Positions 54,329 through 58,176 of a stretch of DNA of 64,000 bases are shown in pieces (position 1 is the first letter of the stretch; the number at the start of each line of letters is the position of its first letter). Position numbers and translations under genes: made by a program. Below the pieces are notes generated by a model. That model saw nothing but the letters and a program-made list of their open reading frames with translations. It was not told where the DNA came from and ran no database searches. The stretch lies in sequence record PP359570; one strand, 5' to 3'. This DNA is from Escherichia phage ALITA.

Positions 54329-55735
54329 ATGCCAGCACCAAAATCATGGGAACAATATAAAGAAGAATTAACACCCCTTGCTAAAAATCACAACATTCAG
54401 ATTCTGGGTTATATTGGTGAATGGAAAGGGAGCAAGACTAAACTTAAGCTATCTTGCTCTGATCATGGGGAGTGGGAAAGTACCATAATCAATAGCTTTA
54501 AAACTAAAGGCGGTAAATGTTGCCCCGATTGCAATGGTCGTAGAAAAGTAACAGAAGAAAAGGAATGTATTTCCCTTGTTGATGTTGCTAAAGAAAGAGG
54601 GTTTACTTTTATAGGTCTTGCCGAAGAGTGGCGAGGTGTGCTAACAAAAATCCGCATAGTTTGCCCTAAACATGGAGAGTGGAACACCACGACCATTAGT
54701 GGTTTTAGGAAGGGACGTGGTTGTCCGGCATGTGCAAGTAATAAGCCGTTAACATGGGAAACAGAATTACCGATCTTGGAAGAGATAGCACAGAAGAAGG
54801 GGTATCAGGTGTTAGGGTACGTGGGAGAATGGAAAGGGATTGATACAAAACTTGATTTGTTGTGTCACTGTGGTAACAGATGGGATACTACAAGTATTAA
54901 CAGTTTTAAACATGATCATGGTTGTCCTTTATGTGGGTATGAGAATACAAGGAAGGCACAAACAATACCCGACGATCAACATATTGCAGATTTCTTTTCT
55001 ACAGGGAAATTTAAGGAAGGCACTATCTTTACCAATACAGGGAAACGTAGTTGTAGTAAAAACAAGGACATTATCTGGATGATCGAATGTCCTGTTTGCT
55101 CTCATGATGAGTATGTGCAAGCAGGTGTATGTGATGGTAAGTTTTATATGACACGTAGCGATCTTAAGGCTGGACACTTGCCCTGCCGCTGTGCAACTAA
55201 CTCTCATTATACAGAAAATCAGATTACCTACAGGGTAAAAAAGGAAGTAGAAGGGAGAGGGTATGTCTGGGTAGGTTGGATCGGTAAACCGTCTATAAGA
55301 CTGGGTAATTTTAAATATCTTTGTCTTGTTCATGGGGAACAAATTGGTAGTGCTTATCGCTTACTATATCAGGATAATGGTTGTCCACAATGTGCAGGTC
55401 ATAGTCAGCAGCAATTGTATGTTAATGTTGTTAAAGATAATGGTATTATAGTTGCTCTTAAGTTTGGTATATCTAAAGATAGTGCTAGGAGATTAAACAT
55501 TCAAAATAGGCGTAATATGTTTTTTATGGAGCGTATTTGTTTATATGATTTTAGTACAGTGAAGCAGTGTAAGGCTGCTGAAAGAGCTATAAAGAAAAAA
55601 TTAAAAACTGGTATCTTAACAGCAAGAGAGTTGAAAGATGGTTATACAGAAACAGTAAGTGTTTCTGATTTGGAAAATCTTCAAAAAATTATTACACAAT
55701 ATGGTGGCAAATTAGTATACAGTAAGGAGGTGTAA
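54329..55735 (+). CDS. Zinc-ribbon repeat protein with C-terminal T5orf172/GIY-YIG-like domain
   Basis: 468 aa; four or more repeats of C..HGEW...F...GCP.C; C-terminal LYVNVVKDNGIIVALKFGIS...RRL block. Confidence 0.55.
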   Translation: MPAPKSWEQYKEELTPLAKNHNIQILGYIGEWKGSKTKLKLSCSDHGEWESTIINSFKTKGGKCCPDCNGRRKVTEEKECISLVDVAKERGFTFIGLAEEWRGVLTKIRIVCPKHGEWNTTTISGFRKGRGCPACASNKPLTWETELPILEEIAQKKGYQVLGYVGEWKGIDTKLDLLCHCGNRWDTTSINSFKHDHGCPLCGYENTRKAQTIPDDQHIADFFSTGKFKEGTIFTNTGKRSCSKNKDIIWMIECPVCSHDEYVQAGVCDGKFYMTRSDLKAGHLPCRCATNSHYTENQITYRVKKEVEGRGYVWVGWIGKPSIRLGNFKYLCLVHGEQIGSAYRLLYQDNGCPQCAGHSQQQLYVNVVKDNGIIVALKFGISKDSARRLNIQNRRNMFFMERICLYDFSTVKQCKAAERAIKKKLKTGILTARELKDGYTETVSVSDLENLQKIITQYGGKLVYSKEV

Positions 55736-56287
55736 ATGCGGATTACTGATAAGTATGTGTTCTTCTTCTCGGCAAAAGATGAATTTAGCAACTGGTATCT
55801 ATCATCTTTTATTGAACCTTTAGCTCCCAAGTATAATAATTCTATTACAAGTTCTGTTGAATTTACTTGTGTGGAACAATATATGATGTGGAGAAAAGCA
55901 TGTTTGTTTTATGATTACAGTATTGCATCTTCTATTTTAACCGGAGATCTAAGATATACAGGAGAAAAAGAACAAGCATATTATAAACGACTAGGCAGAT
56001 TAGTTAAAGATTATGATGAAGATACCTGGGCTTCTTTACGGGAGAAGATTGTCAAGCGTGGTTTGTATCTTAAATACACACAAAATGAAGATCTCAAAAA
56101 TAAACTTATCGCTTACGCAGATAAGGAGTTCGTAGAGGCAAGCCCCTATGATTCTATTTATGGTATCAAAATGGGGATGTGGGATCGGGACGTGGAAAAT
56201 AAGGATTGTTGGAAAGGGCAAAATCTTTTAGGAAAATGGCATACAGACCTTGCTGTTTATCTAAAATCACAATCTGATATTTCCTGA
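55736..56287 (+). CDS. NADAR (YbiA/DUF1768)-family protein
   Basis: 183 aa; strong SD AAGGAGG; blocks FFFSAKDEFSNW, VEQYMMWRKACLF, LGRLV, FVEASPYDSIYGIKMG alignable to E. coli YbiA. Confidence 0.75.
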   Translation: MRITDKYVFFFSAKDEFSNWYLSSFIEPLAPKYNNSITSSVEFTCVEQYMMWRKACLFYDYSIASSILTGDLRYTGEKEQAYYKRLGRLVKDYDEDTWASLREKIVKRGLYLKYTQNEDLKNKLIAYADKEFVEASPYDSIYGIKMGMWDRDVENKDCWKGQNLLGKWHTDLAVYLKSQSDIS

Positions 56288-56506
56288 TATTTTGAAAATT
56301 TTTATTTTTATAAAAAGGGGTGTGGGTTTCATGTACGGAAATCCACCCTCTGAATAATATATCCAGAGTAAGTAGTATTCTGTACTCTGTTAATAAAGTA
56401 TTTAATTTGTTTGTTGGATTATGGTGGCTGATCTTTAAAAGGCATACTATCTCTTAACTACTACTTATAACAAAACAGTAAAATCCTTTTTATAAAAGTA
56501 CAAAAT

Positions 56507-56703
56507 TATTTAAAGTTTTTACAGATTTTCGGGTACAAATTTTGAAAATGAAAAGTTCAAGTTTGGTCAAAATTATTTAAAGTTTTTGTACGTATTTCTG
56601 TCCAGATTTTGAAAATGAAAACTTCAATTTTTTAAAAATTCCCCAGTTTATTTAAAGTTTTTTTGCCTTTTTCCGTAGAAAAATCAAAAATGAAAAGTTC
56701 AAT
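56507..56703. repeat. Three tandem direct repeats (~55-60 bp) in noncoding region
   Basis: Each unit starts TTATTTAAAGTTTTT and ends GAAAATGAAAAGTTCAA with a variable centre. Confidence 0.8.
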
Positions 56704-56724
56704 TTCGTGTTTTTATAGGTGTGT

Positions 56725-56841
56725 TAATGAGAATCATTTTCGTTTGTAAATGAGAATCATTATCATTTAACTATGTAAGTGATAATCATTCTCAGTAAGA
56801 GAATGAGAATCATTAGCAAATGAGAATTTTTCTCATTTACA
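56725..56841. promoter_or_regulatory. Cluster of five palindromic sites with Fur-box-like core (candidate repressor sites or origin iterons)
   Basis: AATGAGAATCATT variants; AATGAGAATCATTATCATT and GTGATAATCATTCTCAG; last copy is perfect inverted repeat AAATGAGAA-TTT-TTCTCATTT. Confidence 0.6.
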
Positions 56842-57098
56842 GAATAACGCGCAGGGGCGGTGTTTGTCTCGCGCTCCCGTGTCCCCTCGCCATACAATAA
56901 GAATAGCATAACCAATAACAAAAGCAAGCGATTATTTTTATCTTTACATTTCTTTACAAATTTATTTTAGACGAGCTACCGGCGATCAACCTTCCAACCA
57001 GTGCCCCCTGGTATGTTAGCCCCGCCTTTACGCCGTGGGGTGGCGTTTCCTCTTCTGTATGTAAAACAGTATAAGCCCGATCCCTGGGCTTGTCAAGA

Positions 57099-57365
57099 TT
57101 ATTTTTTGTTTTCTTGCCAGGATAGGACACCTAACCAAAAATACATGTCGCCCCGCGCCCCTGGTGGGATCTTGCTTTCCCCGCCGCCACTGCAAGCCCA
57201 TAAATAACCATCAGCGAACGGATCAAAGTGATCTATCTCTTCCACCTTATGATCGCCCAGGTTGAGAACGGTTTCAACCTTTAAGCCCGTTGCGCTTGCT
57301 ACCTGGTGCACCGTGCCGCCTTGCCAGCCCAGTGAGTGCATGAGATGTAAAGAAGTATTTGTCAT
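57099..57365 (-). CDS. Hypothetical protein, divergent from early array, GC-rich codon usage
   Basis: 88-aa ORF; hairpin AGCCCAGGGATCGGGCT downstream. Confidence 0.4.
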   Translation of the reverse strand: MTNTSLHLMHSLGWQGGTVHQVASATGLKVETVLNLGDHKVEEIDHFDPFADGYLWACSGGGESKIPPGARGDMYFWLGVLSWQENKK

Positions 57366-57736
57366 GGTATCGCCCTTTCTTTGTTGTGCGCCCTGGTTGG
57401 CGCGGTAGAAAGATGATAGCCGTTTCCTTCATATATAGCAAGCAAAAAAGAAATGAAAAAAAGATTAAAAAATGGTTGACGTTCCTCACCTGGTAGCGTA
57501 GTATTCATCTTGTCGAGGGGGGCAAGACACAACGACAATAAACAATAGGCGGGTGCAATGCAAGACGGGCAAAGGTGAGGATCTCCACAATCCACCGTCA
57601 CAATAACATTACTTATAAAAGGTTGATAACGATGATCAAGAAAGAAAATAGCTTGACGGTTGGAACGATTAACGCTATCATTCTTGCCGTTCCATTTTGG
57701 ATTGTAGTTGCGGTTATTATTTTCTAAAAAAATATT

Positions 57737-57764
57737 CTTGACAACGTTTTTTAATCTGATAAGA
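57737..57764 (+). promoter_or_regulatory. Sigma70-like promoter
   Basis: TTGACA-16-TAAGAT, followed by leader hairpin 57775-57794. Confidence 0.6.
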
Positions 57765-57817
57765 TGTATCACATAGGGCGGCAATAGTGCCGCTCATAAC
57801 AGAAGAGAGAAATAATC

Positions 57818-58093: not shown

Positions 58094-58122
58094 TTGACAC
58101 TGAAAAATAATTTGATAATATA
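58094..58122 (+). promoter_or_regulatory. Sigma70-like promoter
   Basis: TTGACA-17-TAATAT, leader hairpin GGCGGGGAAATGGTTTCCCGCC at 58133-58154. Confidence 0.6.
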
Positions 58123-58176
58123 TACCACATAAGGCGGGGAAATGGTTTCCCGCCAAATCAAAGAAAGGGTAATGCA

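Follow-up and report, generated by a model that had tools for sequence, protein, structure and literature searches.

A conserved cassette, predicted to be transcribed leftward, with a structured non-coding RNA element in the GC-rich patch of Escherichia phage ALITA

Layout and composition of the GC-rich patch

The sequence analysed here is a stretch of 64,000 nucleotides (the window) from Escherichia phage ALITA, a virulent, Justusliebigvirus-like E. coli myophage of the phi92/rV5-like type. A GC-rich patch is located between two rightward operons of this window, while its own features are all found on the minus strand. The features of the patch and of the AT-rich region that follows it are listed below in the order of leftward transcription.

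57413–57441, minus strand: candidate promoter P0 for orf88, TTGCTA-17-TATCAT, 9/12 (promoter scan only)
57099–57365, minus strand: orf88, a gene of 88 aa, phrog_19316 (ORF list, homologues, dN/dS, AlphaFold2)
57068–57096, minus strand: predicted promoter P1, −35 TTGACA at 57096–57091, 17-nt spacer, −10 TATACT at 57073–57068 (scan)
57075–57091, minus strand: terminator-like hairpin AGCCCAGGGAUCGGGCU, then UAUACUGUUUU (terminator scan)
56968–57063, minus strand: structured non-coding RNA element of ~95 nt (covariance model R1, covariation, alignability), made up of a purine-rich leader, then S1, S2, H1 and the invariant tail
57046–57042 with 57034–57030, minus strand: stem S1, interleaved with S2
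57040–57037 with 57023–57020, minus strand: stem S2, interleaved with S1
57015–56995, minus strand: hairpin H1, with a strongly covarying stem
56993–56976, minus strand: 18-nt tail AAGGUUGAUCGCCGGUAG / AAGGUnnAUCGCCGGUAG, directly after H1 and the same in every homologue
56941–56958, no strand assigned: pair of direct repeats TCTTTACA (minus-strand reading TGTAAAGA), nearly invariant in the alignments
56900–56927, minus strand: predicted promoter P2, −35 TTGCTT at 56927–56922, 16-nt spacer, −10 TATTCT at 56905–56900 (sequence level only)
56849–56893, minus strand: GC-rich hairpin H2, GGCGAGGGG...CCCCUGCGC, located where the predicted P2 transcript begins (from sequence)
56723–56841, no strand assigned: five Fur-box-like palindromes, TGA(G/T)AAT-N-ATT(C/A)TCA (consensus and 7-1-7 motif)
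56487–56705, no strand assigned: three AT-rich tandem repeats of 67–75 bp, 23–25% G+C (family D1), downstream of the leftward promoters

The initial annotation had pointed to a sharp change in composition at this place, which was confirmed by sliding-window analysis of G+C. The most GC-rich 400 nt of the 64 kb (57001–57400, 52.0%, z +4.3) lie beside the most AT-rich (the 400-nt window from 56391, 24.0%, z −4.3), and the biggest jump between neighbouring 300-nt windows (+0.213) falls at 56791. As a whole, positions 56850–57500 contain 47.6% G+C, compared with a mean of 38.0% for the window. This excess can be traced to the GC-rich helices of the RNA, to terminator hairpins and to a single small gene rich in G+C at third codon positions. 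GC skew ranges from −0.15 to −0.22 over 56800–57300, and minus-strand RNA is G-rich. The sequences quoted earlier were all found in place, including GCGCAGGGG...CCCCTCGCC at 56849–56891, CCCCGCC...GCCGTGGGG at 57020–57040 and AGCCCGATCCCTGGGCT at 57075–57091.

The only gene proposed for the patch, an 88-aa minus-strand ORF, was found at exactly 57099–57365, and both homologues and purifying selection speak for it as a real gene. Homologues include 21 database relatives together with tblastn matches, sharing 40–97% identity and occurring in these phages or phage-like contigs only, and their alignment contains 17 invariant columns. The dN/dS values range from 0.05 to 0.36, and no second-position changes are seen among close relatives. 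Judged from these alignments, orf88 is a real protein-coding gene under purifying selection. Its predicted fold is all-helical (AlphaFold2 pLDDT 93.4) and may include an N-terminal helix-turn-helix; a search for structural relatives with this fold found none. The candidate promoter P0 and the first early promoter of the rightward direction (57476–57504) point away from each other, and the hairpin at 57075–57091 is predicted to end the orf88 transcript inside the P1 spacer. orf88 was also considered as an obligatory partner of the RNA element and rejected, as it lies upstream of the RNA in 18 loci only, corresponding to about one quarter of the core-motif loci, some of which are chance matches. 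The codon usage of orf88 had been described as host-like. Its third-position G+C is 0.53, while 42 long ORFs taken from the window have 0.29 ± 0.07, so that the atypical composition was correctly noticed; a host-like origin is not supported.

Such codon usage belonged to a broader proposal, in which the patch is a recently and horizontally acquired GC-rich island marking a module boundary. The composition jump, the biggest in the window, the deviating third positions of orf88 (0.53 versus 0.29 for the phage) and the fact that the segment does separate two transcription units are what this proposal would predict. Nevertheless, a blastn comparison of the segment with 5,426 complete E. coli genomes gave zero matches, orf88 relatives are confined to these phages and phage-like contigs, and the RNA core does not occur in any of 185,579 bacterial and archaeal species, each represented by one genome. 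Moreover, the segment is conserved and syntenic across two phage subfamilies and occupies the same position in 126 phage records at ≥80% coverage; in Justusliebigvirus genomes the region is 95–97% identical and unannotated. Horizontal acquisition is already contradicted by this evidence and is almost certainly wrong. We read the patch as a conserved early control cassette that is native to the phage and predicted to be transcribed leftward, not as captured host DNA. We put the probability that its anatomy comprises a real conserved non-coding RNA gene and a real small gene, rather than host DNA, at roughly 0.7.

Structure and strand of the RNA element

A structured non-coding RNA had been suggested as another explanation of the patch, and this suggestion is borne out at 56968–57063 on the minus strand by a covariance model, by compensatory changes and by a conserved promoter directly upstream. 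Model R1, built from homologues, matches the element with 105.9 bits (E ~1e−31); a search of the window together with 116 kb of phage alia gave this single match. No known family accounts for the element, as Rfam 15 returned nothing at gathering score anywhere in the window and, at E ≤ 10, nothing overlapping 56845–57100. Weak matches to miRNA and snoRNA families merely reflect AT-rich palindromes at 56716–56853. In agreement with the earlier remark that no tRNA could be folded, ARAGORN finds neither tRNA nor tmRNA in the whole window or in six homologous loci, nor does it reproduce the tRNA-Met and tRNA-Ile features placed here in record OY978796, which look spurious. Coding ORFs over the RNA (56954–57130 and 57001–57207) were also dismissed, because they contain P1 or the terminator and because the loop-length indels of the element are not multiples of three.

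Promoter P1 scores 11/12 in the scan, with a predicted start at 57060–57062. Among 34 distinct homologues, 33 have a P1 of at least 9/12, whose −10 hexamer ends 0–4 nt before position 1 of the model. The spacers are unrelated in sequence among homologues; in all lineages they hold a GC hairpin, which varies in sequence and frequently has a GNRA loop. By position and motif, P1 is thus predicted to be a conserved-position sigma70 promoter.

In 40 distinct sequences, the proposed helices are paired in 82.4% of cells, compared with 17–39% when the partners are slid by 1–3 columns, and nine pairs are altered on both sides. The covariation score is 0.182 versus at most 0.037 for slid partners and was reached by none of 500 shuffles. 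As alignment A6 was fitted to the model, it leans towards the structure; an independent MAFFT alignment gave the same outcome for covariation. For instance, pair 52–74 of H1 is A-U in 27 sequences and G-C in 13, pair 29–44 of S2 is C-G in 29 and A-U in nine, and the S2 pair that follows occurs in all four types (A-U, C-G, G-C and U-A). Thermodynamic stability was uninformative, since the predicted folding energy over 225 nt does not surpass that of shuffled sequences (z +0.4 for the minus and +0.5 for the plus strand). Stem S1, of 4–5 bp, is nearly invariant, its sole compensatory change being an A-U exchange in locus L021, so that the case for a pseudoknot rests on the covariation of S2, two pairs of which are broken in L058, and on geometry. 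On the minus strand, loops L1 (1 nt), L2 (1–2 nt) and L3 (6–7 nt, A-rich) fit an H-type pseudoknot, a geometric argument from loop lengths in the sequence. Together these features suggest that S1 and S2 form a pseudoknot-like interleaved pair of stems.

The strand of the RNA can be judged from several features. Within the internal helices, three wobble pairs fit the minus strand only and none the plus strand only, and for 24 of 27 sequences the minus-strand version of H1 is the more stable one; the shortest versions of H1 have GNRA loops on this strand only. Counted over all pairs the wobbles tie at 14 versus 14, owing to fringe pairs that favour the plus strand. These fringe pairs of S1 and S2, G.U on the plus strand only in 12 sequences, would fit an RNA of opposite polarity that is repressed by Fur, starts at about 56850 from a promoter overlapped by the last Fur box and acts as an iron-responsive RNA in the style of RyhB or as an antisense to the P1 and P2 RNAs. 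Such an RNA would end at about 57055, after the hairpin ACGCCGUGGGGUGGCGU and a U/C-rich tail. A terminator-like site at 57030–57046, followed by TTCCTCTTCT, is indeed present; in several lineages TTGAAT-18-CAGAAT has a Fur box exactly within its spacer, and in some the cis anticore copies described below mean that the tail could be masked by its complement. However, the promoter candidate reaches at most 8/12, and several lineages do not have the conserved A at −11. The window itself has no such promoter at this place, its best score being 7/12 at another position. Being weak and inconsistent among lineages, the Fur-overlapped promoter was rejected. Furthermore, L3 would be a single nucleotide on the plus strand and would have to cross a helix of 4–5 bp, so that plus-strand stems could only be alternative hairpins, and the internal wobble pairs, the GNRA loops and the higher stability of H1 all belong to the minus strand. 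A functional plus-strand RNA is therefore unlikely.

It could also be argued that the invariant 18 bp act as a DNA-level site, used by a phage recombinase, terminase, primase or replication initiator, and that the hairpins are incidental or fold in single-stranded DNA. The block consists of 18 contiguous invariant bp with GATC and CCGG, retained across very divergent phages; inverted second copies occur in L047 and L067, and the conserved direct repeats TCTTTACA adjoin it. Nevertheless, the compensatory changes of H1 and S2 directly abut the invariant block, indicating selection on a folded single strand. In addition, the block lies at a constant distance from a conserved promoter that would read into it, and the inverted copy is followed in some lineages by a U-run, which looks terminator-like. 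A DNA site is hence quite improbable, whereas a fold adopted by single-stranded DNA rather than by RNA is conceivable.

Distribution and possible roles of the RNA element

The RNA element is spread over Stephanstirmvirinae, Vequintavirinae and metagenomic relatives, with one copy per genome. In distant genera, including Seunavirus, Mydovirus, Certrevirus and others, positions 56819–57065 are the only part of an 8-kb query that can be aligned, at 72–85% identity. No description of this RNA, or of its architecture of putative pseudoknot, hairpin and invariant tail, was found in the literature; the RNA gene is previously undescribed and strongly conserved.

What follows the element differs among lineages. 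In L021 and L010, it is succeeded by its own hairpin and U-run, and the Fur or AT-repeat module is missing, whereas in L054 about 270 nt separate it from that module. In L050, L054, L058 and L067 the tail is followed by a complementary "anticore" and a U-run, and L047 and L067 have a second, inverted copy of the invariant 18 bp; the window has neither a second copy of the tail nor an anticore. Since a canonical terminator is absent after the tail in the lineage of the phage itself, the RNA may be processed, end at H2 or run into the AT-rich repeats.

Phage small structured RNAs made by host RNA polymerase include RNA C and D of T4, oop of lambda and the sRNAs of Pseudomonas phage PAK_P3. Like these, the element is a short non-coding gene of an early region; it has a predicted sigma70 promoter of its own and a fold rich in G+C, and some lineages add an intrinsic terminator. 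Unlike them, it matches no Rfam 15 family, and no counterpart of its architecture was found. Another comparison is offered by the operator of T4 gene 32 mRNA, in which a 5' H-type pseudoknot precedes an unstructured A/U-rich tract that nucleates protein binding. The element similarly has a compact putative 5' pseudoknot with an A-rich third loop and a downstream A/U tract with repeated UAAA (57046–56930, minus strand), but a hairpin and the invariant G/C-containing tail are inserted between the two, no coding sequence follows, and no link to a gene for a single-strand-binding protein was seen. As a promoter-proximal stem-loop RNA it could, by analogy, act on the transcribing polymerase, as does the put RNA of HK022 in cis-acting antitermination; here, however, no similarity is evident and nothing downstream obviously needs antitermination.

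At the level of sequence, host RNA polymerase with sigma70 is predicted to initiate at P0, to transcribe orf88 and to terminate at the hairpin within the P1 spacer. P1 would then make a non-coding RNA consisting of the purine-rich leader, the interleaved GC stems, H1 and the invariant tail. It may be tentatively proposed, at somewhat less than even odds, that this P1 RNA is a small RNA of early infection that is made as a discrete species and acts in trans via its invariant tail. The pseudoknot and hairpin would provide a stable scaffold, and the single-stranded tail would be the active part, binding a conserved partner of the host or phage, either protein or RNA. Two kinds of target for the tail were rejected. 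As an SD-like or 16S-complementary sequence, its duplex energies with rrnH 16S, 23S and 5S rRNA and three tRNAs were no better than those of shuffled tails; in the phage genome, scanned as the window together with 116 kb of phage alia, shuffled queries gave complementary runs equally often; those of the tail, among the matches listed, measured at most 14 nt and had many G.U pairs.

Fur-box-like palindromes, AT-rich repeats and a possible replication origin

About 60 nt past the tail and in the same direction as P1 lies P2, with a predicted start at about 56893. The TTG of its −35 corresponds to the invariant CAA of CAAGCG in alignment A1, and its −10 hexamers have A2 and T6 at one column in all lineages inspected; this pattern argues that P2 is a second conserved promoter. 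The two repeats TCTTTACA, spaced by one helical turn, immediately precede the −35 of P2 and are also contained in the A/U-rich tail of the predicted P1 transcript. P2 would fire leftward through H2 into the Fur-box-like palindromes and AT-rich tandem repeats. The hairpin H2 encloses a block, GAGACAAACACCG, that is conserved in 29 distinct homologues. Seven sequences had hinted at an outer stem with minus-strand wobble pairs, but RNAalifold on all 29 finds no consensus fold, both strands being similar, and a conserved fold of H2 is thus not claimed.

Matches to the 19-bp Fur consensus GATAATGATAATCATTATC (≤3 mismatches) number four in the window, three of them in the array within 95 bp, whereas 0.03 are expected in 64 kb, and the array contains five 7-1-7 sites. 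In homologous loci, sites of the Fur type at a fixed distance reach 5.64 per kb versus 0.147 per kb elsewhere, a 38-fold enrichment, and arrays of putative Fur boxes recur in another long non-coding stretch of the genome. The palindromes resemble the Fur operators of Enterobacterales and of Fur-controlled small RNAs such as RyhB in matching both consensus and 7-1-7 motif, and the string AATGAGAATCATT of the array is an exact entry in published Fur-box lists. They differ in that the putative sites lie 45–170 nt downstream of P2, not over a strong promoter, and belong to a virulent phage. No report of Fur boxes in these phages was found in the literature. The AT-rich tandem repeats are a candidate unwinding or regulatory region; analogous repeats exist in related phages and are GATC-rich in some genera. 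The module of P2, Fur boxes and AT repeats is probably a separable neighbour of the RNA element that puts leftward transcription or an origin under Fur control.

The main rival to a trans-acting RNA is a transcription-primed or transcription-activated replication origin, in which P1 and P2 fire into the palindromes and AT-rich repeats and the G-rich structured transcript forms an R-loop or primer. Transcription-dependent origins are represented by the primary origin of T7, which combines tandem promoters with an AT-rich region, by oriF and oriG of T4 and by RNA II of ColE1. The locus shares with them tandem promoters directed towards AT-rich repeats, a structured G-rich transcript and the absence of a downstream ORF. 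The two conserved co-directional promoters face 56487–56841, the stretch of lowest G+C (24%) with its tandem repeats, the RNA of the minus strand is rich in G, and the leftward transcripts have no ORF to express. In addition, the AT-rich repeats of Klebsiella and Salmonella relatives have clustered GATC sites and A/T tracts, which we take to be reminiscent of the 13-mers of oriC. These phages also encode a T7-type primase-helicase (annotation; PMC3606486). Where replication of rV5-like phages begins is still to be located, the group having no experimental origin mapping (PMC3606486), and no description of an origin in these phages was found in the literature.

Unlike the known origins, however, the element occurs without the AT module or terminates before it, depending on the lineage. 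The RNA of L021 and L010 is followed by a terminator of its own, with neither AT repeats nor a Fur module downstream, and L054-type phages have a terminator-like stem and U-run between RNA and AT repeats; the RNA element is accordingly not obligatorily coupled to the AT-rich region. Furthermore, there is no GC-skew switch at the region (the skew of rV5 follows transcription only; PMC3606486) and no adjacent initiator gene. A transcription-primed origin is therefore possible but rather unlikely, although the module of P2, Fur boxes and AT repeats could serve as an origin alone. Nevertheless, no better candidate is available at present for the replication origin of the group, which is still to be mapped.

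A more speculative idea, which we hold to be doubtful, is that rV5/phi92-like virulent phages wire the host Fur protein into an early control hub, with conserved arrays of high-quality putative Fur boxes beside P2 and the RNA as well as in the second non-coding region. If true, the arrays would make leftward transcription or origin firing iron-responsive or, alternatively, titrate Fur as the genome amplifies and de-repress the host iron regulon, and the RNA with the invariant tail would be the effector or primer of the switch. Should Fur bind the arrays, a strictly lytic phage would be sensing or altering the iron status of its host, which is rarely seen and has relevance to the iron-limited gut and to infection.

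Myophages related to rV5, phi92 and PVP-SE1 are widely used in therapy and biocontrol, and their early region is mostly unannotated. Model R1 could annotate the element in hundreds of genomes that now carry spurious ORFs and, in one record, spurious tRNAs. With one promoter, one hairpin and an 18-nt tail, the RNA element provides a testable handle. Across two subfamilies and several host genera it is better conserved than any neighbouring protein gene, indicating that the RNA is likely central to these phages, with host takeover, replication and regulation as candidate functions.

Genomic setting and composition of the GC-rich patch

Genomes of Justusliebigvirus, a genus of phi92-like E. coli myophages (about 146 kb; subfamily Stephanstirmvirinae) that includes Antha, alia, inny and VEcB, match the 1.5 kb around the GC-rich patch at 95-97% identity. 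The patch is flanked on the left by a NADAR-domain gene (55736-56287) and on the right by the next rightward genes (from 57818). Most of this interval is without annotation in Justusliebigvirus records, which carry there at most one minus-strand 'hypothetical protein', 'repeat_region' features or a string of tiny ORFs.

The GC-rich patch is a real feature. The sharp change in composition described in the initial annotation was confirmed, with G+C at 47.6% over 56850-57500 vs 38.0% over the window and the largest G+C step anywhere in the sequence at 56791. The 400-nt stretch from 57001 is the maximum of the window (52.0%, z +4.3) and the stretch from 56391 its minimum (24.0%, z -4.3). The hairpin sequences quoted there and the 88-aa minus-strand ORF (57099-57365) lie exactly where they were placed, and ARAGORN likewise found no tRNA. 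Horizontal acquisition, also proposed there, proved wrong: blastn of 56840-57500 gave no match in 5,426 complete E. coli genomes, and by this comparison the patch is not host DNA. The same query was covered to at least 80% by 126 phage records. From distant genera (Seunavirus PVP-SE1/GAP31, Mydovirus, Certrevirus CR3/CR9, Henunavirus, and Pectobacterium, Serratia and Proteus phages) only its left 125-267 nt could be aligned, at 70-88% identity and with no annotation underneath. With an 8-kb query, 56819-57065 was the sole DNA-level stretch common to the distant genera and this phage. A non-coding stretch that outlasts every gene around it is the hallmark of an RNA or DNA element with a function.

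Several records and genes around the patch deserve mention. 'Campylobacter phage' GenBank records with C. jejuni as host (MG065639, MG065650 and others) are 93-96% identical to this coliphage group over the region, which suggests mislabelled hosts or contaminating coliphages. A 56-nt match (96.5% identity) between window 57445-57500 and Enterococcus phage heks (MT119359, 958-1013) underlies a 'cytidine deaminase' CDS; heks belongs to the wastewater study series that also yielded alia and inny, and the match may reflect a chimeric assembly or chance A-rich similarity. The gene at 54329-55735 encodes a 468-aa protein with four CapR-homology repeats and DUF723 and T5orf172-like regions (PHROG 'endonuclease'); lengths of 990, 1173 and 1398 nt in close relatives fit a mobile homing-endonuclease-like gene. 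Three rightward sigma70-like promoters follow in series (57476-57504, 57738-57790, 58094-58150), each with a short GC hairpin at the transcript start before small early genes; two belong to the repeat family CTTGACA..N..TGATAAGAT/TAATAT..CACATAGGGCGG. Between the first and the next lies a 50-aa ORF (57575-57727) with a hydrophobic C-terminal half (AIILAVPFWIVVAVIIF), without annotation in alia and inny.

Layout of the cassette and the upstream gene

Homologues were collected by fetching annotated loci and then by pattern scans with the invariant core, the 18-nt block 3' of hairpin H1. The scans added 23 viral and about 25 metagenomic contigs, all true homologues, while the pattern had only three chance-like matches in 185,579 bacterial and archaeal species, one genome each. 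The parts of the cassette were resolved from the alignments, on the minus strand and from right to left.

Parts of the cassette, right to left
57099-57365, minus strand: orf88, the 88-aa gene
57096 to 57068, minus strand: P1, predicted sigma70 promoter TTGACA(57096)-17-TATACT(57068), score 11/12, with embedded GC hairpin
57063-56968, minus strand: conserved RNA element, 94 positions
Left of the element: A/U-rich tract with two direct repeats TGTAAAGA
56927-56922 (-35) and 56905-56900 (-10), minus strand: P2, predicted promoter; TTG of the -35 is the invariant CAA of CAAGCG
Left of P2: GC-rich hairpin around conserved block GAGACAAACACCG
Leftmost: Fur-box-like palindromes, then AT-rich tandem repeats

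Judged by its conservation, orf88 is a real gene. Its homologues (40-97% identity) occur in these phages only and share the invariant motifs LM..LGWQGGTVHQVA..TGL.V..L.L at the N terminus and FW.GV at the C terminus. dN/dS lies between 0.05 and 0.36, close relatives show no change at second codon positions, and the AlphaFold2 model is a confident one of five helices (pLDDT 93.4). GC3 is high. Since orf88 precedes the RNA in some lineages only, it is not an obligatory partner of it. The -10 hexamers of P2 share one alignment column (TATTCT, TATATT, TATTAT, GATAAT, CATAAT). An exact 11-mer, ATTTTGAAAAT, occurs three times: directly 3' of the NADAR stop codon (56289-56299), in the first AT-rich repeat (56539-56549) and in the second (56606-56616). 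In Klebsiella phage vB_Kpn_K45PH128C2 (OY978796), tRNA-Met and tRNA-Ile are annotated over the Fur-box/GC-hairpin part (1362-1515 of the extracted locus, L004); ARAGORN found no tRNA in that region, and these features therefore look like annotation errors.

Fold, covariation and strand of the RNA element

Read on the minus strand, the element comprises a leader ACAUACAGAAGAGGAA, ACGCC-A-CCCC-AC-GGCGU-AAAGGC-GGGG and CUAA, followed by CA-U-ACCAG-[GGGGCA]-CUGGU-UG and AAGGUUGAUCGCCGGUAG. H1 is found in every homologue with varied stems (CCAG/CUGG, CCGGGC/GCCAGG, CCC/GGG, CUU/AAG, GC/GC, GCC/GGC) and loops of 4-12 nt. In a MAFFT alignment of 22 sequences, 82.9% of the cells of H1 and the interleaved stems S1 and S2 are paired vs 18-39% with slid partners; nine pairs change on both sides, and none of 500 shuffles reached the covariation score. 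A covariance model built from this alignment has one match per genome; that in the window scores 105.9 bits and is the sole one in the window and the remaining 116 kb of phage alia. Among known families (Rfam 15), the GC-rich part matched none at gathering score nor at E<=10. In 40 sequences, whose alignment was fitted to the model and so leans towards its structure, the corresponding figures are 82.4% vs 17-39%, again with nine pairs changed on both sides, and the covariation score is 0.182 vs at most 0.037 for slid partners. At H1 pair 52-74, 27 sequences have A-U and 13 have G-C, and pair 57-70 varies among A-U, C-G, G-C, U-A and G-U. At S2 pair 29-44, 29 sequences have C-G and 9 have A-U; its neighbour is A-U, C-G, G-C or U-A among minority lineages. 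S1 hardly varies, showing a single exchange. Most sequences have a mismatch at the fourth S2 pair, where a slip by one C/G is possible instead, and one lineage (L058) has two broken S2 pairs. The 18-nt tail, AAGGUnnAUCGCCGGUAG, is invariant except at two n positions. The earlier suggestion of a structured non-coding RNA was thus right, and by these comparisons the RNA is a family not previously described, in a compact promoter-terminator cassette adjoining a conserved Fur-box array. Two metagenomic contigs (L047, L067) carry a divergent AT-rich class without pseudoknot, in which a long hairpin precedes the invariant tail.

The strand was judged from several lines. Counted over all pairs, wobbles tie (14 G.U vs 14 A.C) because fringe pairs of S1/S2 favour plus and those of H1 minus; internal pairs give 3 to 0 for minus. 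Of 27 sequences, 24 have the more stable H1 on the minus strand, and the loops of its two shortest versions read GCAA and GAAA on that strand only. If read on that strand, S1 and S2 would make an H-type pseudoknot whose loops (1 nt for L1, 1-2 nt for L2, 6-7 nt for the A-rich L3) are sterically normal; in the plus-strand reading the third loop shrinks to 1 nt, so that the two stems could only be alternative hairpins. Predicted P1 is kept (at least 9/12) in 33 of 34 distinct upstream sequences, with 0-4 nt between the end of its -10 and the conserved block, and its 17-18 nt spacer contains a GC hairpin, different in sequence between homologues, then a T-rich run. This conservation around differing hairpins is the strongest evidence for the strand read. 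A plus-strand antisense RNA, possibly Fur-controlled, is a rival: a terminator-like site is present on that strand, but the promoter candidate that overlaps the last Fur box reaches no more than 8/12 and is inconsistent, and the window lacks it. Internal wobbles, H1 stability and loops, P1 and loop geometry together point to a minus-strand RNA.

In every lineage the terminator hairpin of the upstream gene (window 57075-57096) is nested in the P1 spacer, with the P1 -10 region doubling as its T-rich tail; the stems covary and the loops are often GNRA.

Fur-box-like sites and possible role of the RNA

The interval 56723-56841 contains three (0.03 expected) of the four places in the window that match the 19-bp Fur consensus, as well as five 7-1-7 sites, of which two are perfect. 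Their core string is found in published Fur-box tables. Across 28 representative loci, the density of such sites is 5.64 per kb in the 330 nt that follow the RNA core vs 0.147 per kb elsewhere; many lineages have the first one +129 to +133 from the core, and in several the further ones are spaced about 29 bp apart. Fur may bind here. No site overlaps a convincing promoter in the window, and a literature search turned up no description of such boxes in a virulent phage. About 11 kb right of the patch, outside the window, a second long AT-rich region without annotation (1.8 kb; alia MN850632 88,121-89,940, L074 7122-8941) has four more near-perfect sites, e.g., AAATGATAATCATTATCAG; it may be the 'non-coding' box of the rV5 genome map.

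Promoters aimed at an AT-rich region are an established arrangement in T7, T4 and ColE1. The window's two tandem promoters point at its AT-rich repeats in the same way, and its own lineage has no canonical terminator 3' of the tail. The RNA could accordingly be a primer or activator of an adjacent replication origin, which we regard as rather unlikely; the origin of rV5-like phages is unmapped in the literature (PMC3606486). Other lineages show that the RNA element and the P2/Fur/AT module are separable. In L021 and L010, a GC hairpin and U-run lie 50-80 nt after the tail, then convergent coding sequence, without Fur boxes or AT repeats downstream. In L050, L054 and L058 the tail is followed by an anticore, a segment complementary to it, and a U-run; in L054 a gap of about 270 nt with AT-rich repeats lies between these and the module of TGTAAAGA, P2, block and Fur boxes. 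L067 and L047 have two convergent copies whose mutually complementary tails form a stem of the tail/anticore type. A partner of the tail was sought among rrnH RNAs and in the phage genome, and none was found. What several lineages carry resembles a discrete small RNA with a terminator; this resemblance and the separable modules rank a trans-acting RNA above an origin primer or activator. In these phages the element may therefore tentatively be regarded, with a probability of about 40%, as a trans-acting early RNA that would work through its invariant tail.
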